Source: a bacterium (GTDB lineage Bacteria > UBA8248). From it: a DNA stretch of 64,000 bases. Positions 1 to 37,350 of this stretch are shown here, in pieces. Where the stretch lies: NCBI GenBank assembly GCA_963692865.2, contig OY843592.1, positions 3,328,001 to 3,392,000 of the forward strand, given 5' to 3'. How positions within the stretch are numbered: the stretch's first letter is position 1; the number at the start of each line of letters is the position of its first letter. The notes under the pieces were generated by a model. The model did not search any database. It had not been told where the DNA came from and saw nothing but the letters and a program-made list of their open reading frames with translations. A program made the position numbers and the translations under genes.

Positions 1-352
1 ACTTGATCGCGTTGGTGAAGAGATCGCAGTTCTGGGAGTGATCCCAGTGCAGGTGCGTGAGGATGAGGATGTCCACTTCCTCGGGCTTCCAGCCCGCGCC
101 TTCCAACTGCTCGCGCACGCCCTGGCCGGGCTCCCGGCTCGCGGGCCAGGGGGCGCCGCCGCGTTCGGGGTCGAGAAAACTGGTGTCGACCACGACCTTC
201 ACGTCCTTGCCGTCGTGGTCCTTCGCCCCCTCGATCATGTAGATGAACGAGGGAATCTCGAGCTTTGTCCCGAAGTTCGTCCAATACACCATATTGGAGT
301 AATCCGTATGGATGGTGCCGCAGTTCAGCGGACGGATGGTGAGGTCTGACAT
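1..352 (-). CDS. N-acyl-homoserine-lactonase-family metallo-beta-lactamase-fold hydrolase (runs off the window edge)
   Basis: Not in the ORF track. Manual translation from ATG at 352: MSDLTIRPLNCG...VVVDTSF...DILILTHLHWDHSQNCDLF, containing the HxHxDH motif. Confidence 0.85.
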   Translation of the reverse strand, partial: MSDLTIRPLNCGTIHTDYSNMVYWTNFGTKLEIPSFIYMIEGAKDHDGKDVKVVVDTSFLDPERGGAPWPASREPGQGVREQLEGAGWKPEEVDILILTHLHWDHSQNCDLFTNAIK

Positions 353-470: not shown

Positions 471-1070
471 TCAAGCCCGCGCGGTTCTCGCGAAGCGCAC
501 CACCTCCATCAACTCGTCCGGGCCTTCGGGTTCGACCGCGTCGAGGCCGAGCGCCAGATTCAGCCGGTTGCTCATGTTCCGGTACGACACCGAGCCGATG
601 ATGTCCAATATGTTCTCATCTGAGAACCCCGCCTCGCGCAGCGCGTCCAGGTCCGTCTCGCTCATGGCGTAGTGGTCGAACGTGAGTTTTTCGGCGAAGG
701 CGAGCATCGCCTTGTCCGCGTCGTCGAGAGCCGGGGAATTGTCCCTGTCCATCACCACGCCGGCCACGTCGGCCAGCGTTACGTCGTCGCCGCTTTCAGC
801 ACGGAAAGCCTGGCCATGGTTCATCGTTCAGCCGTAGCACCCGCCGATGGTGGCGACGTAGTAGGAGATCAACTCCTCGCGCCTCCCGCCCAGCGTCGAG
901 TTGCCGCCATGAACGGCCATGTTCATCGTCTGGCGTCCGTTCAAAACTTGGGGCCTGCGCGCCATCGTGAGCAACAGCTTGGGCACCGCGCCTCTCTTCG
1001 CCCGGATGCCCTCGAGAATCCCTCTAGCGGGCTCCTGGGCGTCATTCAGCCTTAATGGGGATATCCACAT
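471..1070 (-). CDS. AhpD/carboxymuconolactone-decarboxylase-like peroxidase-related protein, probable selenoprotein (CxxU, TGA at 828-830)
   Basis: ORFs 828..1070 and 471..824 are in one frame, separated by TGA plus one ACG codon. Read-through gives RREELISYYVATIGG-C-Y-G-U-T-M-N-H, matching the AhpD-type E...CxxCxxxH signature; C-terminal half has AMLAFAEKLT and GFSDENILDII. Confidence 0.85.
789..814 (-). promoter_or_regulatory. Candidate bacterial SECIS hairpin downstream of the in-frame UGA
   Basis: mRNA GCC-AG-GCUUUC-CGUGCU-GAAAGC-GGC: 6-bp stem starting 18 nt after UGA, G at loop position 2, plus a 3-bp lower stem; folded by eye. Confidence 0.55.
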
Positions 1071-1094
1071 TCTCCGTTCTCCTCGATACCAGCG

Positions 1095-2150
1095 TTATTC
1101 GCTTGAGCTTGCCGCGCGCTCTTCCGCGAACGCGGGCATCACCTCTTTCGCAAACCTCTCTATGGATTCAATCGCCTCGCCCTGGGCGATGCCGCGCAGC
1201 ACGAAGATCATGATGTGGTTCACCTGGAACTCCGCCTGGAGCCGCTTGAGATCGGCGATCACCTTATCCGGCGGGCCGATGACGCCGCCGCCCTCGATGA
1301 CCTGGCGGATGTCGACGTCGTAGCTCCAGTTGCGCTTAAGGGCCTCTTTCTCCTCGAGCGGCATCTCGATGGCGTTCACCGCGCTGCGGTAGGAGAGATA
1401 CCACGATTCGGAGGGTTCGATTTGCCGCCAGGCGTGCTCGGGGTCGTCGCATACGTGGACGTGGTGCGCCATGAGGGAGGGATACTCATCCGGGTCGCCG
1501 CCGCGCTTGCGCACGGTTTCCTGGAAGAGCGCCATCTTCTCCAGATACACGTCGGGCCCCTTGAAGGTGCCCGACGCCATGATGTTGTACCCCCTCTCGC
1601 CGGCGAAGACGTAGGTTTCGGGACTCGTGCCGGCCAGCCAGATGGGAGGGCGCGGCTTCTGGACGGGTTTCGGGAAAATCTCCGCGTCGATGCAGCTGTA
1701 GTGCTTCCCGTGGAAGGTGAGGCATTCCCCCTCCAGCAGGCGGGTCATCACCTCGATGCCCTCCTGCATCTTTTCCCTGCTCTCGGAAGGGGAGATGTTG
1801 AAGCCCTGAAACTCCTTGGGCTGGGAGCCTCTGCCAACGCCCAGTTCCAGGCGTCCGCCGCTCAGCACGTCGACCAGGGCCGCCTGTTCGGCCAGGCGCA
1901 CCGGATTGTGGAAGGGCATGATGCAGATGGCGGTGCCGATCCGTATCTTCTTGGTTCTTTGCGCGATGGCGAGCGCGACCATCAAGGCGTCGGGGCACAT
2001 GCCCACGCGGGAGAAGTGGTGCTCGGCCAGGAATACCGTGTCGTAGCCGAGTTCGTCCGCCACCTCGCACTGTTCGATCAACAGATCGAACTCGTGCTTA
2101 TAGGTTTCTCCCTCCTGACAGGCGGGAATGTAGAAAAGCGAGAATTTCAT
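1095..2150 (-). CDS. LLM-class flavin-dependent oxidoreductase (luciferase-like)
   Basis: Start MKFSLF at 2150; motifs AEHHF, RIGTA, PVRLAEQAALVDVLSGGRLELGVGRG, PKPVQKPRPPIW. Confidence 0.9.
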   Translation of the reverse strand: MKFSLFYIPACQEGETYKHEFDLLIEQCEVADELGYDTVFLAEHHFSRVGMCPDALMVALAIAQRTKKIRIGTAICIMPFHNPVRLAEQAALVDVLSGGRLELGVGRGSQPKEFQGFNISPSESREKMQEGIEVMTRLLEGECLTFHGKHYSCIDAEIFPKPVQKPRPPIWLAGTSPETYVFAGERGYNIMASGTFKGPDVYLEKMALFQETVRKRGGDPDEYPSLMAHHVHVCDDPEHAWRQIEPSESWYLSYRSAVNAIEMPLEEKEALKRNWSYDVDIRQVIEGGGVIGPPDKVIADLKRLQAEFQVNHIMIFVLRGIAQGEAIESIERFAKEVMPAFAEERAASSSE

Positions 2151-2197: not shown

Positions 2198-2596
2198 TTA
2201 CGCGCCCATCGTGAACACCTTGTCCGCCCGGATGCGGTAGATGACGCGCACCTGCCCCGCCTGACGGTTGGGATAGCTGTCCACCCCCAGGTACTTGTTC
2301 GCGAGAGCGTCGATGTGCTCTTCCGCCCCGTTCTCGGTTATCTCGACCACCGTGCCCTGCAACCCCACCCACCTGTAGGCGTTTTCGGGGTCGACGATGG
2401 CCATCGACACCTTGGGACGCGCGCGCATGTTCAGGTCCTTGAGACGCCCCTTGGCCGAATTGACCTCGATGATGTCCCCGTTGGTCCCGAACCACACGGG
2501 AGAGACCTGGGGAGAGCCGTCCTTGTTCTGGGTTCCCAGATACAGGAGGGCCTTGGTGTCGAGAATGCCTGCATGAGATTCGGGTATCAGCGCCAT
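2198..2596 (-). CDS. PPOX-class (split beta-barrel) probable F420-dependent oxidoreductase
   Basis: 132 aa; GTQNKDGSPQVSPVWF, GRLKDLNMRARPKV, IDALANKYLG, RVIYRI. Confidence 0.85.
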   Translation of the reverse strand: MALIPESHAGILDTKALLYLGTQNKDGSPQVSPVWFGTNGDIIEVNSAKGRLKDLNMRARPKVSMAIVDPENAYRWVGLQGTVVEITENGAEEHIDALANKYLGVDSYPNRQAGQVRVIYRIRADKVFTMGA

Positions 2597-5882: not shown

Positions 5883-6635
5883 ATGCCGGCGAAAGTAAGC
5901 ATCAAGAATCTGCACATGGAATACTACCTGAAGGACAGAAAGGTGTACGCCCTACAGGACATCAACCTAGACATCCAGGACGGGGAATTCCTCTGCGTCG
6001 TGGGACTGTCCGGTTGCGGGAAAACCACGCTGCTGAACATTCTCGCGGGCTTCCTGAACCACACGGCGGGCTCCATTCTTTTGGACGGCAACCCCATTTC
6101 CGCCGCGGGCCGCATGAACCGGGGCGTCGTTTTTCAGGAATACGCGCTTTTCCCCTGGCGCACGGCGCTCAGGAACGTCGAGTTCGGCCTGGAGATGAAA
6201 GGCCTCGGCAAGGAGGAGCGCAGTCAAAAGGCGCAGGAATTTCTCGAGCTCGTCCACCTCGAAAAATTCACCCATCTCTACCCCCACAACCTCTCGGGCG
6301 GCATGAAGCAGCGCGTCGCCGTGGCGCGGGCGTACGCCTACGAGCCGCAGTTCATGCTCATGGACGAACCCTTCGGCGCGCTCGACGCGCAGACGCGCGA
6401 GAACCTCCAGTCGCTTACGGTCGAGGTATGGGAGAAAACGAAGAAGACCATCTTCTACGTCACGCACAACCTGAGCGAGGCGGTCTACCTCGCGGACAGG
6501 ATCATCGTTCTCGCGGGCCAGCCGGGGCAGATTCACAAGGAGATCGTCGTGGACGTCCCGCGTCCCCGCGACCCCTTCGACCCGAGGGTTATCGAACTCG
6601 AACACATGGCGACCGAAGCCGTGCGCGGCAACTAG
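5883..6635 (+). CDS. ABC transporter ATP-binding protein, nitrate/sulfonate/taurine (SsuB/TauB-like)
   Basis: Walker A GLSGCGKTT, VFQEYALFPW, LSGGMKQR, MDEPFGALDAQTR, VTHN. Confidence 0.92.
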   Translation: MPAKVSIKNLHMEYYLKDRKVYALQDINLDIQDGEFLCVVGLSGCGKTTLLNILAGFLNHTAGSILLDGNPISAAGRMNRGVVFQEYALFPWRTALRNVEFGLEMKGLGKEERSQKAQEFLELVHLEKFTHLYPHNLSGGMKQRVAVARAYAYEPQFMLMDEPFGALDAQTRENLQSLTVEVWEKTKKTIFYVTHNLSEAVYLADRIIVLAGQPGQIHKEIVVDVPRPRDPFDPRVIELEHMATEAVRGN

Positions 6636-18758: not shown

Positions 18759-21122
18759 ATGAGTCCGACCCGGATACGTGGAGGAAGTCATCTGATGCCC
18801 GGCGGGCAAGAAGGAATCGAAAAACGTCACCACAGTTCCCATTGGGGGGCGTTCCGGGCGCACGTGCGCGATGGCCGCATGGTGGGTTTCGAGCCGTTCG
18901 CCAAGGACCCGGCGCCCTCGCCCATCCTGGAATCGATCCAGGACGCCATATACGACGAAACACGCATCTCCCAACCGATGATCCGAGCGGGCTGGCTCGA
19001 AGGCGGCCCCGGAAATAACTCCGAAGGACGCGGCGGCGAACCCTTCGTGCCCGTCTCCTGGGAGACGGCCCTCGGAATGGTCGCCGACGAAGTCATGCGC
19101 GTCAAAACCGAATACGGCAACGAGTCCATTTTCGCGGGTTCATACGGCTGGGCGAGCGCGGGCCGCTTCCACCATGCGAACACGCTGCTGAAGAGATTCT
19201 TCAACTGCTACGGCGGCTTCACGGATCAGGTGACCACCTACAGCATCGCCGCCGGGTACGTCATCCTTCCACACGTCATGGGGGATTTTATCTCCTGCGC
19301 CGGACACATCACGACTTGGGACAGCATCGCGCAAGACTCAGGGCTGTTCGTCATGTTCGGCGGCGTTCCTGTCAAGAACGCGCAGGTGGCTGCGGGAGGC
19401 GCGGGAGAACACTCCCTGGAGCTATGGCTCGAAAGGGCGAAGGCGAACGGGGTGGAATTCGTGAACGTAAGCCCCCTGAAAGACGATGCGCCAGATTTCC
19501 TGGACGCGCAGTGGCTCGCCGTGCGCCCGAATACGGACGTGGCGCTCATGCTCGGCCTCGCCCATACGCTTCGGGAGGAGAACCTGCACGATACGGATTT
19601 CCTCGCGCGCTATTGCGTGGGTTTCGAGAAGTTCGAAGCCTATCTGACGGGCGAAACCGACGGCCGGCCCAAGAACGCGGACTGGGCGGCCCCCATCACG
19701 GGAATCGGGGCGGACGTCATCCGAACCCTCGCCCGGCGCATGGCGGGCGCGCGAACCATGCTCAACACGAACTGGTCGCTCCAGCGCGCGGACCACGGCG
19801 AGCAGACGTTCTGGATGACCATCACGCTCGCCGCCATGCTCGGTCAAATCGGCCTGCCCGGCGGCGGCTTCGGCTTCGGCTACGGGAGCATGGGCGGACG
19901 CGGCGAGCCGCGCGAGAACATCCCTTCCGTCAGAATGGGGTTCGGGAAAAACCCGACCGGCAGCTTCATCCCCGTCGCCCGCATCGCGGACATGATGCTC
20001 CACCCGGGCGGGGAATACGACTTCAACGGCGAGCGCCGCACCTACCCGGACATCCGCATGGTGTACTGGTGCGGCGGCAATCCCTTCCACCACCACCAGG
20101 ATTTGAACCGGTTGGTGAAGGCGTGGCGGCGGCCCGAGACCATCGTCGTCCACGACCCCTGGTGGACGTCCACGGCGCGCCATGCGGACATCGTGCTGCC
20201 CGCCACCACGACGCTCGAGCGCAACGACATCGGTTCGAGTTCGAGAGACCGCTTCATCCTCGCCATGCACAAGGTGATCGAGCCGGTCGGAGAGGCCCGG
20301 CACGATTTCGACATCTTCGCCGACTTGGCCGAACGCCTCGGCTTTAAGAGCGCCTTCACCGAAGACCGCGGCGAGACGGAATGGCTGAGACACATCTACG
20401 AGGAGGCGCGCCAGAAGGCCGCCTCTCAGGGCGTGGTCCTCGATACGTTCGAGCATTTCTGGGAGACGGGACACACGGAAGTCGCTACGCCTGAGACGCC
20501 GCACGTCTATCTGGCCGATTTCCGGGAAGACCCGGAGAACAAGCCGCTCAAGACGCCCTCCGGGAAAATCGAGATATATTCGGAGCGCATCGAGAGCTTC
20601 GGGTACGCTGATTGTCCGCCCCACCCCGCCTGGCTCGAACCCATGGAGTGGCTGGGGAGCGGACTGGCGGAGAAATTCCCGCTGCACATGATCTCGAACC
20701 AGCCGCGCACGAGACTCCACGGCCAGATGGACAGCGGCTCCACCAGCGTCAAGAGCAAGATTCAAGGCAGGGAGCCGGTGTGGATTCACCCCGCAGACGC
20801 CGCAGCCAGAGGAATCGCAGGCGGAGACGTCGTTCGAATCTTCAATGAGCGGGGCGCGATTCTGGCGGGCGCCGTCATCACGGACGGGCTGCTGCCCGGC
20901 GTCATCCAGCTCTCCACGGGCGCGTGGTACGACCCGCAGGAACCGGGGAGAATCGGCGCGCTCGACAAGCACGGAAACCCCAACGTCCTGACGCCCGACA
21001 AGGGAACCTCGAGCCTCGGCCAGGGCCCCAGCGCGCACAGCGCGCTGGTGGAGATGGAGCGCTACGAGGAAGAGCTTCCCGAAGTCACGGCGTTTCAACC
21101 CCCATCCTTCATCGAGGCGTAA
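18759..21122 (+). CDS. DMSO/TMAO/biotin-sulfoxide-reductase-family molybdoenzyme (BisC-like), cytoplasmic
   Basis: SHWG, GSYGWASAGRFH, TYSIAAG (Ser ligand), GGNPFHHHQD, ADIVLPATT, RLHGQ, GNPNVLT; no Tat signal seen; start may be 18795. Confidence 0.9.
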   Translation: MSPTRIRGGSHLMPGGQEGIEKRHHSSHWGAFRAHVRDGRMVGFEPFAKDPAPSPILESIQDAIYDETRISQPMIRAGWLEGGPGNNSEGRGGEPFVPVSWETALGMVADEVMRVKTEYGNESIFAGSYGWASAGRFHHANTLLKRFFNCYGGFTDQVTTYSIAAGYVILPHVMGDFISCAGHITTWDSIAQDSGLFVMFGGVPVKNAQVAAGGAGEHSLELWLERAKANGVEFVNVSPLKDDAPDFLDAQWLAVRPNTDVALMLGLAHTLREENLHDTDFLARYCVGFEKFEAYLTGETDGRPKNADWAAPITGIGADVIRTLARRMAGARTMLNTNWSLQRADHGEQTFWMTITLAAMLGQIGLPGGGFGFGYGSMGGRGEPRENIPSVRMGFGKNPTGSFIPVARIADMMLHPGGEYDFNGERRTYPDIRMVYWCGGNPFHHHQDLNRLVKAWRRPETIVVHDPWWTSTARHADIVLPATTTLERNDIGSSSRDRFILAMHKVIEPVGEARHDFDIFADLAERLGFKSAFTEDRGETEWLRHIYEEARQKAASQGVVLDTFEHFWETGHTEVATPETPHVYLADFREDPENKPLKTPSGKIEIYSERIESFGYADCPPHPAWLEPMEWLGSGLAEKFPLHMISNQPRTRLHGQMDSGSTSVKSKIQGREPVWIHPADAAARGIAGGDVVRIFNERGAILAGAVITDGLLPGVIQLSTGAWYDPQEPGRIGALDKHGNPNVLTPDKGTSSLGQGPSAHSALVEMERYEEELPEVTAFQPPSFIEA

Positions 21123-34181: not shown

Positions 34182-35461
<1,280 letters not shown>

Positions 35462-35465
<4 letters not shown>

Positions 35466-36319
35466 GAGATGTATTTTCCAATCAATTGATGCAGGCGCTC
35501 TTTCGTCTCTTGCGGCATGCGTGCCGGGTCGGTCATGAGAGCCGTCGCCAAAGAGCCGGCAAAGGGGCTGTCACCGGCGATCTCGGGCGCCGCTTCCTTG
35601 ATGATCTCCTGCGCGAGGGCCGCGTTGCTTCTTACGAGAGCGATCACGGCTTCCACGCTCACCGCCTCTTCCTCCTCGTGCCAGCAGTCATAATCCGTCG
35701 CCAGCGCGATGGTTGCGTAGCTCATCTCCGCCTCGCGCGCGAGCTTCGCCTCGGGCATGTTCGTCATCCCGATGATCGAAGCGCCCCAATCGCGGTAGCG
35801 GAAACTCTCCGCCCGGCTGCTGAACTGGGGGCCTTCCATGCAGACGTACGTGCCGCCCGCGTGCGCCGTCGCGCCCGCCCGGAGGGCCGCGCCCATCAGG
35901 GTCTCGCTCAAAACCCCGCATACCGGGTCCGCCATCGAAACATGGGCGACGACGCCGTCGCCGAAAAACGTGCTCGCGCGCGTTTTTGTGAGATCGATGA
36001 ACTGGTCGGGAATCACGATGTGGCCCGGATGAATCTCTTCTTTCAGGCTGCCCACCGCGCTGACGGAAATCAGCCATTCCACACCCAGTTGCTTGAATCC
36101 GTGGATGTTGGCCCGGAAGGGGATCTCATGCGGCAGATATACGTGCCCGATTCCGTGCCTGGGCAGAAACGCGATCCGCTTGCCGGAGAGCGTTCCCAGA
36201 ACGTAGGGGGCCGAGGGCGCGCCGTAGGGCGTATCGATCGCGCGTTCTTCCACCTCGCCCAGTTCCGCCATCTCGTAGAGGCCGCTGCCGCCGATGACTC
36301 CGATATTCACATCAGACAC
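35462..36319 (-). CDS. mtnP: S-methyl-5'-thioadenosine phosphorylase
   Basis: IIGGSGLY-like start, [36 protein letters not shown]. Confidence 0.95.
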
Positions 36320-36339
36320 TTATATAACCTCGTTCGTCA

Positions 36340-37350
36340 TCACTTCACCGGGGCCGCCCGGATCATTCCCTTCTCGATCAGCGCCTCGGCAATCTGCACC
36401 GCGTTGAGGGCGGCGCCTTTTCTCAGGTTATCCGCCACCACCCAGAGGTTGAGGGTATTTTCCCGGGAATCATCCCGGCGGATGCGGCCGACGTATACCG
36501 GGTCTTCTCCGTCCGCGTCCTTGGGCATGGGATAGGAGAACGATTCCACGTCGTCCAGCACCTCCACGCCCGGCGCGCGGGAGAGCAATGCCCGCGCCTC
36601 CTCGGGTGAAACGGTCTCCTCGAACTCCACGTTCACGGATTCCGAGTGCGCGTTGAAAACGGGCACCCGCACGCACGTGGCGCTGATCGCCAGATGAGGC
36701 GCGCCCATGATCTTCCGCGTCTCATCGACCATCTTCCTCTCTTCTTTGGTATGGCCGCCGTCCAGAAAAACGTCGATATGGGGCAGGCAATTGAAGGCGA
36801 TCTCATGGGGCATTTTCCTGGGAACCGTTTCATCGCCCTCGATTTGCGCCTGCATCTCGTCTATTGCGGCTTGCCCCGCCCCGCTCACCGCCTGATAGGT
36901 GCTCACGACGACTCGCCTGATGCGTGCGGCGTCGTGAAGGGGTTTGAGCGCCACCACGAGCTGGATGGTGGAGCAGTTCGGGTTGGCGATGACCCCCTGG
37001 TGAGCGGCCAATGCTTCGGGGTTCACCTCCGGCACCACGAGGGGCACGCCCTCATCCATGCGGAAGGCGCTGGAATTATCCACCACCACCGAACCGGCCT
37101 TGACGGCGGCGGGCGCGAACTCCAAAGAGCGGGAAGCGCCGCAGGAAAAAAGCGCCAGGTCCACACCACAGAACGCATTCTCGGTGAGCCGGCTTACCGT
37201 AAGCTCGGCGCCGCGAAACGGGATTTTCCGACCGACGCTGCGCGCACTCGCGAGCAAAACGACCTCATCGGCGGGAAAATTCCGCTCCTCCAGGATTCGG
37301 AGCATCTCCCGGCCCACGGCGCCCGTGGCGCCTGCGACGGCGACGCGCAT
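36340..37350 (-). CDS. asd: Aspartate-semialdehyde dehydrogenase
   Basis: GATGAVG, NPNCSTIQ, STYQAVSGAG, CVRVPV, DNLRKGAALN. Confidence 0.97.
   Translation of the reverse strand: MRVAVAGATGAVGREMLRILEERNFPADEVVLLASARSVGRKIPFRGAELTVSRLTENAFCGVDLALFSCGASRSLEFAPAAVKAGSVVVDNSSAFRMDEGVPLVVPEVNPEALAAHQGVIANPNCSTIQLVVALKPLHDAARIRRVVVSTYQAVSGAGQAAIDEMQAQIEGDETVPRKMPHEIAFNCLPHIDVFLDGGHTKEERKMVDETRKIMGAPHLAISATCVRVPVFNAHSESVNVEFEETVSPEEARALLSRAPGVEVLDDVESFSYPMPKDADGEDPVYVGRIRRDDSRENTLNLWVVADNLRKGAALNAVQIAEALIEKGMIRAAPVK

Follow-up and report, generated by a model that had tools for sequence, protein, structure and literature searches.

The window, by which we mean the whole 64-kb stretch of contig OY843592.1 analysed here, carries near its beginning a minus-strand gene (1070..471) that very probably encodes an AhpD-like selenoprotein. 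The gene is a single frame interrupted only by a TGA at 830-828, and under translation table 11 it falls into two open reading frames (ORFs) of that same frame: 1070..828, with 80 aa plus the TGA, and 824..471, with 117 aa. They are joined by TGC TAC GGC TGA ACG ATG AAC CAT. This junction is identical to the one described in the first-pass annotation, a reading of the raw sequence that had noticed two ORFs sharing a frame across C-Y-G-stop-T-M-N-H and had not given the strand. When the TGA is translated as selenocysteine (Sec, U), a protein of 199 residues with U81 results, and a single family match spans both halves, in line with the earlier claim of one 199-aa protein having the TGA at residue 81.

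The read-through protein matched the Pfam family CMD (PF02627) with 24.8 bits (cut-off 23) and the NCBIfam family TIGR01926, "peroxidase-related enzyme", with 109.3 bits (cut-off 81.8), residues 2-177 lying on positions 2-174 of the 178-position profile. The AhpD/CMD-like identity proposed at first sight is thus well founded. The canonical AhpD profile, TIGR00777, was not matched by the read-through protein (12.9 bits, cut-off 191.95). By sequence, the nearest PDB entries were 6k40 (E 1.2e-18) and 3c1l (E 1.2e-17), followed by 2pfx, 2prr and 2oyo, and the CxxCxxxH motif of these entries aligns on C78-Y-G-U81-T-M-N-H85. An AlphaFold2 model, built on an alignment of the query and 86 full-length representatives (picked by eye from 150 listed, fragments and longer fused forms being excluded), is all-helical with ten helices (predicted local distance difference test, pLDDT, 90.4; predicted template modelling score, pTM, 0.86). 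In Foldseek comparisons, the template modelling (TM) score was 0.72-0.82 between the model and 3c1l, 2prr, 6k40, 2pfx and 2oyo, 0.68-0.73 for the Bmp8 debrominase (6ohj/6ohi, 17-18% identity) and 0.45-0.55 for Mycobacterium tuberculosis AhpD (1gu9/1lw1). No close likeness to the 4-carboxymuconolactone decarboxylase enzyme was found, the matches being the generic Pfam CMD domain and 4g9q with a TM score of 0.31-0.35 and a probability of 0.54. Among the 86 representatives, the column of E66 holds Glu in 81, that of C78 holds Cys in 80, that of U81 holds Cys in 74 and that of H85 holds His in 83. The TGA hence falls on the second Cys of CxxCxxxH, exactly where the first-pass annotation had placed it. 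Overall, the hidden Markov model, the all-helical AhpD/CMD fold and the active-site signature all speak for membership of TIGR01926/COG2128.

Public protein sets hold this gene in pieces. In a word-indexed protein search, 12 of the 13 best matches were 116-117 aa long and started with the M-N-H that comes right after the TGA, and the remaining one, P0012 (154 aa), likewise begins at the same M-N-H. The first full-length match, P0014, is 49% identical and has Cys at the TGA column. An exhaustive search of representatives gave as its best three matches, in this order, 116 aa of the C-terminal part, 80 aa of the N-terminal part (96% identity) and a Cys form of 201 aa. One of the fragments bears the public name "hypothetical protein [Nitrospinae bacterium]". 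The suspicion that standard annotation misses this gene was therefore justified, the public predictions being split into pieces of 116-117 aa and 80 aa.

A scan of genome contigs yielded 129 pattern matches and, after confirmation, 49 loci; together with the window gene, these loci make up 50 related genes. Their redox pair reads TGC/TGT-x-x-TGA (CxxU) in 35 genes, TGA-x-x-TGA (UxxU) in 12 and Cys-x-x-Cys in 3, so that the U81 column holds TGA in 47 of the 50 and Cys in 3. The Cys-x-x-Cys genes come from Dehalococcoidia (L043) and Thermoplasmata (L045 and L047), while the records of TGA-bearing genes are labelled Nitrospinota, Dehalococcoidia/SAR202 and Betaproteobacteria. The TIGR01926 cut-off was passed by all ten loci that were re-scanned out of the 49. 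In a maximum-likelihood tree of the 50 proteins, with a midpoint root only, the window gene belongs to a clade of 20 rows (the window and L001-L019; support 100/98), every one of which is CxxU, and L020 groups with the UxxU clade at 96/83. Two CxxU records, L040 and L042, are entitled "Bordetella parapertussis"; in the tree, both fall close to genes from metagenome-assembled genomes (MAGs) of uncultured Betaproteobacteria, which makes the record name look doubtful.

Comparison of the window gene with L001-L019 revealed mostly synonymous codon changes in both halves. For L018, the part preceding the TGA shows 49 synonymous and 14 non-synonymous changes and the part following it 61 and 33; for L013, the corresponding numbers are 22 and 10, and 27 and 16. 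The counts for the C-terminal half of L012 are meaningless owing to an in-frame deletion: L012:6001-6573 is without 8 in-frame codons inside the conserved stretch ...SE(ADLDALRE)AGFSDEN..., which represents either a real deletion or an assembly artefact. As judged from these substitutions, both halves of the gene evidently evolve under purifying selection. TGA is also an ordinary stop codon here, ending 11 of the 25 window genes with strong family matches (TAA and TAG end 7 each), and it is not reassigned in this genome.

To describe the RNA that follows the TGA, we number the U of the UGA as column 1, so that a window coordinate equals 831 minus the column. Two hairpins overlap in this stretch. 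The one pointed out in the first-pass annotation, GCUUUC-CGUGCU-GAAAGC at 18 nt after the TGA, does lie there, at 809..792, and constitutes the core (columns 22-39) of hairpin B, whose extended form takes up columns 17-42. In the window gene and L001-L017, the energy is -6.7 kcal/mol for the core and -10.6 kcal/mol with the extension; in L018-L020, hairpin B is weaker and rearranged. Third codon positions in its stem are invariant in the window clade, and the sites that do vary are in the bulge or the loop or are compensated. A long-range stem, GGCCAG/CUGGCC, seen in the first minimum-free-energy fold, was dropped because L017-L019, inspected by eye, do not preserve it.

Hairpin A lies closer to the UGA. 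At its columns, TGA genes from Dehalococcoidia, betaproteobacteria and other distant taxa have a stem of 7-8 bp with a GUU loop (ACGGAGC-GUU-GCUCCGU, for example, with GAGA/UCUC and GAGG/CCUC variants also occurring), L021 has CACGGAA-GGUCC-UUCCGUG, and L018 and L019 have hairpin A lengthened to 7 bp along with a weakened hairpin B. Pairs were counted over the 47 TGA genes (31 distinct rows), excluding the three Cys forms. Hairpin A has 81.0% of its cells paired; displacing the partner by 1-3 columns lowers this to 30.2-48.8%, and none of 500 shuffles matched either the observed percentage paired or the covariation score. Columns 20 and 24 pair as AU in 12 rows, as CG in 8 and as GC in 2; C13, A14, G16, G17, U26, C28, G29 and U30 do not vary among the 47 TGA genes. 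Hairpin A was not formed in any of the three Cys-form genes, with energies of +7.3, -0.4 and +2.9 kcal/mol.

The variation at synonymous sites was followed in 19 ungapped members of the window clade, with L012 dropped because of its deletion and L020 excluded. Pairs of codons for the same amino acid differ with a frequency of 0.30 gene-wide and of 0.09 in the 10-codon windows starting at codons 81-89 (for instance, codons 85-94), the global minimum, which comes to lie at codons 82-97, and so low a window was reached by 43 of 5000 permutations of the codon columns. Codons 86, 88, 89, 90, 92 and 94 are invariant; each has its third position either at U30 or within a stem of hairpin B. Synonymous variation occurs at column 21 (bulge), column 33 (loop), column 39 and column 15. 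The change of column 39 from C to U in L018 and L019 is matched by G22 to A, turning a G-C pair into A-U; column 15, either U or C, pairs with G29 in hairpin A both ways. From this pattern, we conclude that an RNA element directly after the UGA is under selection. In the window clade, the pattern fits hairpin B well, and hairpin A is the element common to the family, being present in all 47 TGA-bearing genes. Together with the hairpin A pairing, the constrained stretch and its synonymous minimum also sustain the initial proposal of an element resembling a selenocysteine insertion sequence (SECIS) just 3' of the UGA. As an observation in its own right, the post-UGA hairpin differs from clade to clade, and the strongest one in the window clade stands about 8 nt downstream of the family-wide hairpin. 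These differences look like a SECIS drifting within the coding region.

Table 1. Features of the AhpD-like locus and its neighbours, in window coordinates
Feature	Position	Strand	Evidence or remark
AhpD-like selenoprotein gene, 199 codons (1070..474) + terminal TGA (473..471), putative Sec codon 81	471..1070	-	frame; TIGR01926 109.3 bits > 81.8; AlphaFold2 pLDDT 90.4
Shine-Dalgarno-like GAGGAG, 8 nt before the ATG (1070..1068)	1079..1084	-	read directly from the sequence
In-frame TGA, proposed Sec81 codon	828..830	-	TGA in 47/50 related genes, Cys codon in 3; column Cys in 74/86 relatives
Redox motif C78-Y-G-U81-T-M-N-H85; E66 (875..873) 11 residues before C78, giving E-x11-C-x-x-U-x-x-x-H	816..839	-	column counts
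Hairpin A, CAUGG...CCGUG, 5 bp, 9-nt loop, columns 13-31	800..818	-	pairing counts, 47 TGA genes
Hairpin B, GCUUUC/GAAAGC core (809..792), loop CGUGCU, extended by GCC/GGC across a 2-nt bulge	789..814	-	clade-specific
Suppressed synonymous change, about codons 82-96, directly 3' of the UGA	783..827	-	codon variation in the clade
Luciferase-like monooxygenase (LLM, flavin-dependent), 24 nt upstream	1095..2150	-	family match from MKFSLF (~2150); listed ORF runs to 2495
F420-dependent PPOX-class oxidoreductase, further upstream	2198..2596	-	TIGR03618 98.3 bits > 79.05
Metallo-beta-lactamase-fold (MBL) lactonase-like protein, downstream, cut by the window start	2..352	-	full-length in L005 and L018

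The neighbours of the gene recur in its relatives. The order F420/PNPOx - LLM - AhpD-like(U) - MBL - small CMD protein is kept in L005 (2327-7922) and L018 (4480-7800), and L020 keeps it in part, having the LLM gene on its upstream side and the CMD gene on its downstream side. An LLM gene likewise adjoins L044, a distant member of the CxxU type. This survey covered 55 of the 105 listed locus ORFs, chosen by eye for profiling. Such conservation allows us to speculate that the enzyme might serve one oxidative pathway rather than general defence.

Taken together, the data lead us to read 1070..471 as one gene for a 199-residue AhpD-like CxxU selenoprotein in which the UGA at 830-828 would be decoded as Sec, and we put the probability of this reading at roughly 0.88. 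The idea of a CxxU selenoprotein, put forward in the first-pass annotation, is now backed by the Cys alignment, the conservation of the TGA and the constrained RNA. Decoding would be performed by SelB with Sec-tRNA(Sec), guided by a stem-loop within the next ~45 nt. In the window clade, the guide would most likely be hairpin B extended to 814..789, with G29-U30 in the loop; alternatively or additionally, the family-wide hairpin A at 818..800 may play this part. As a guide for bacterial SECIS elements, the spacing from the UGA to the loop G is 16-37 nt. The active site of M. tuberculosis AhpD includes Glu118, Cys130, Cys133 and His137, with Cys133 as the attacking residue. By this model, we take the position of U81 to be that of the attacking residue, aided by the His and the Glu. 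Judging by its relatives, Sec81 would replace the attacking Cys of the CxxC pair; it might then attack a peroxide or an oxidised partner, and the selenenylsulfide that it forms with C78 would be recycled by a thiol or lipoamide reductant.

Several observations weigh against this reading. The genes selA, selB and selD were not found among the 61 ORFs of the window (NCBIfam); tRNA-Sec was not found in the window by tRNA and Rfam scans, which returned tRNA-Met only, nor by ARAGORN in the flanks of the 49 loci; these negatives speak for the window and the flanks and say nothing on the remainder of the genome. On the side of the RNA, hairpin A is weak in the window (-3.0 kcal/mol), and its two pairs changed on both sides are not above the shuffles, 81 of 500 of which reach that number. 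Hairpin B is not formed in the other clades, with 63.8% of its cells paired overall. The 45-nt stretch behind the TGA folds no better than shuffled sequence (z -0.21; 71 of 200 shuffles fold equally well), and the 61-nt fold of the window gene is not significant (z -1.02), a value of z = -2.18 being reached by L032 and L044 only. A stem-loop with a G in its apical loop does lie 3' of the UGA, though its energy is not above that of shuffles, and the acting hairpin may be either A or B; the two overlap and compete. Finally, a peroxidase role of the window protein would be derived from a Cys-form relative of 33% identity, DR1765 (6k40). As for a candidate for the machinery itself, an AIR-synthase-family gene beside a UxxU gene (L024 4136-5455) was considered as selD and rejected: the selD profile gave 74.4 bits, below its cut-off of 125, and the gene is ThiL, with TIGR01379 at 286.9 bits, above cut-off.

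What else might a TGA inside this frame mean? Gene callers stop at it, and the closest relatives are present in public sets only as fragments, as would also be seen if 830-828 held a sequencing or assembly error, a strain-specific nonsense allele or the lesion of a pseudogene. Yet 47 of the 50 related genes, drawn from several phyla, share the TGA at this codon, as does every one of the 20 in the window clade; the codon aligns exactly with the catalytic Cys, and both halves change mostly at synonymous sites. The conserved TGA, the coding constraint and the ordinary TGA stops thus rule out, for practical purposes, a nonsense allele, an error of sequencing and an altered genetic code, and the strain-specific allele that the first-pass annotation had itself named as fatal to its proposal is not the case; such an origin of the TGA has, in our opinion, next to no chance. 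Scarcely better are the prospects of two polypeptides of 80 aa and 117 aa, produced by termination at the TGA and a restart at the ATG three bases on (TGA ACG ATG). In the window gene and L001-L017, this ATG does stand one codon after the TGA; it is replaced by CTT/CTA in L018/L019, GTG in L020, ACC in L044, GTT in L046 and CTG in L048, and the restart fails because these relatives bear the TGA all the same. It would also place C78 and H85 of one catalytic motif on separate chains, whereas the Cys-form relatives are single chains. Insertion of a standard amino acid at the UGA, be it near-cognate Trp, Cys or Gly or the product of a reassigned code, draws on the Sec machinery not seen in the window and on the tRNA-Sec not seen in the flanks of the 49 loci. 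A global reassignment is contradicted by the stops described above, the AhpD-like gene itself ending with TGA, and a TGA that pairs with a redox Cys and has a constrained RNA element behind it bears the signature of Sec. Sec decoding is indirectly supported by the two-TGA paralogue in the same assemblies and by a table in the BSepDB paper (PMC13326102), in which MAGs named Nitrospinota/Nitrospinaceae and filed under "UBA8248" stand among organisms with 48-54 predicted selenoprotein genes. We consider a standard amino acid at this position very unlikely, if a little less so than the restart.

A different question is whether the selenoprotein has another job, namely that of a dedicated selenol/thiol reductase for an LLM/MBL/CMD pathway, such as a Bmp8-like reductive dehalogenase. 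The LLM neighbour, conserved in L005, L018 and L020 and recurring in the distant L044, and the presence of the Bmp8 debrominase among the structural matches both lend some colour to this idea. The nearest solved relatives by sequence and by fold are nonetheless peroxidase-related AhpD-like proteins, and neighbourhood alone is weak evidence of a pathway-specific role. According to a review, a mutant of one of these relatives, DR1765 of Deinococcus radiodurans, is sensitive to H2O2, and the Cys residues of its CxxC matter for complementation (PMC8945050). The dedicated reductase accordingly seems to us a rather unlikely, if still credible, variant of the selenoprotein reading. Whatever its job, a CxxU selenoprotein is recognisable here from raw sequence, and splitting it into "hypothetical" pieces of 80 aa and 117 aa miscounts a redox enzyme in a lineage reported to be selenoprotein-rich.

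The UxxU paralogue deserves a separate comment. At its 12 loci (L021-L031 and L049), TGA stands at both redox positions, in the context H-G-G-TGA-Y-G-TGA-A-M-N-H, in 12 of 12 copies, and the product is 46-52% identical to the window protein; in L024:6001-6564, for example, the first TGA precedes the second (6235-6237) by 9 nt. Both copies that were scanned passed TIGR01926 (85.2 and 100 bits). Many synonymous changes flank the TGAs on both sides, and a single hairpin, A, follows the second TGA. In the maximum-likelihood tree, the UxxU genes form one branch (100/98) nested among the CxxU genes. As judged by accession prefixes, ten of the 12 copies share their assembly with a member of the window clade; in the window, the search for the paralogue matched only the CxxU gene itself. 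Review tables assign to the AhpD-like family a CxxU motif with one Sec and reserve UxxU for other families, as far as these tables go (PMC2398784, PMC13188914, PMC9312934). An AhpD-like UxxU was likewise not found in the part of the literature on bacterial UxxU selenocysteine or AhpD diselenide that was covered, the BSepDB database and supplements being outside this scope. It is tempting to suppose, if with little confidence, that the AhpD-like fold of this Nitrospinota-labelled lineage has been pushed stepwise towards selenium: CxxU and UxxU, the latter possibly forming a diselenide, coexist in at least 10 assemblies, UxxU is nested among CxxU, and the hairpin is shifted. In this speculative scenario, the enzyme might also be a selenol reductase tied to LLM/MBL/CMD and not a general peroxidase. 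If it is true, the window gene is one half of a natural pair in which to ask what a CxxC-type redox site gains from a second Sec, and how UGAs 9 nt apart are both served by a single short stretch of mRNA. The more useful lead is the CxxU/UxxU pair that these genomes share.

Some observations were made elsewhere in the window. A rough screen for read-through listed 108 TGA sites flanked on either side by open frames of 45 codons or more, nine of which were picked by third-position GC and by eye for a Pfam scan. Two of the nine matched families, and neither match spans the TGA as one domain; we rejected both as read-through genes, one being the LLM and PPOX genes that happen to be in frame and the other an ordinary phosphorylase gene. 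A gene for a PNP_UDP_1 phosphorylase (157 bits, first ~285 codons) occupies 35276-36319 (-), antisense to 35081-36532 (+), the longest ORF there (484 aa), which is without an NCBIfam match. An antisense ORF thus outcompetes the real gene at this place, in a window of 61.7% GC. At 18759-21119 (+) lies a molybdopterin S/N-oxide reductase of the BisC/TorA family (TIGR00509, 1082 bits, above the cut-off of 1017.55), surrounded by genes for an amidase, a Rid-family protein, an allophanate hydrolase and an acyl-CoA ligase.

Finally, we would like to compare the window gene with the systems already known. M. tuberculosis AhpD has the CMD-fold helices in common with the window protein, as well as the arrangement E-x11-C-x-x-C-x-x-x-H; the window protein is not a member of its type, TIGR00777, as both the profile search and the low TM scores indicate. 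Much closer are DR1765 (6k40) and the "peroxidase-related" structures 3c1l, 2prr, 2pfx and 2oyo from the Joint Center for Structural Genomics, with E values of 1e-18 to 5e-13 besides the TM scores given above. They differ in having Cys at both positions, where the window gene has TGA at the second, and identity is 24-36%. The Bmp8 debrominase, a CMD-fold thiol enzyme, shares the fold class and little of the sequence. As in the bacterial SECIS of the Escherichia coli fdhF type, a stem-loop in the coding sequence follows the UGA, and both hairpins offer the G (GU) in a small apical loop; unlike in that type, two overlapping hairpins compete in the window gene.

The best match is the family of AhpD-like selenoproteins itself. 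The Sargasso Sea data yielded 27 AhpD-like (COG2128) sequences with CxxU, described at the time as a new family of selenoproteins (PMC1088965), and "AhpD-like 1, COG2128, CxxU" was counted among the most abundant families of the Global Ocean Sampling data, with 299 genes (PMC2398784). "AhpD-like protein, COG2128/TIGR01926, CxxU" is also listed in two reviews, in the later one with one Sec (PMC9312934, PMC13188914). The remark that AhpD-like selenoproteins are known as a class is hence confirmed by the literature cited here, in which the family has been listed since 2005. With this family, the window gene shares the TIGR01926 model, CxxU with Sec at the second redox position and a stem-loop just 3' of the UGA. 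Nothing essential differs, apart from the Nitrospinota label of the lineage and a strongest hairpin lying ~8 nt downstream. Overall, the window gene shows every tested feature of the AhpD-like CxxU family and is a further member of it, not new as a kind: it introduces no new principle and adds a clade with a conserved TGA and with suppression of synonymous change directly over the proposed SECIS.

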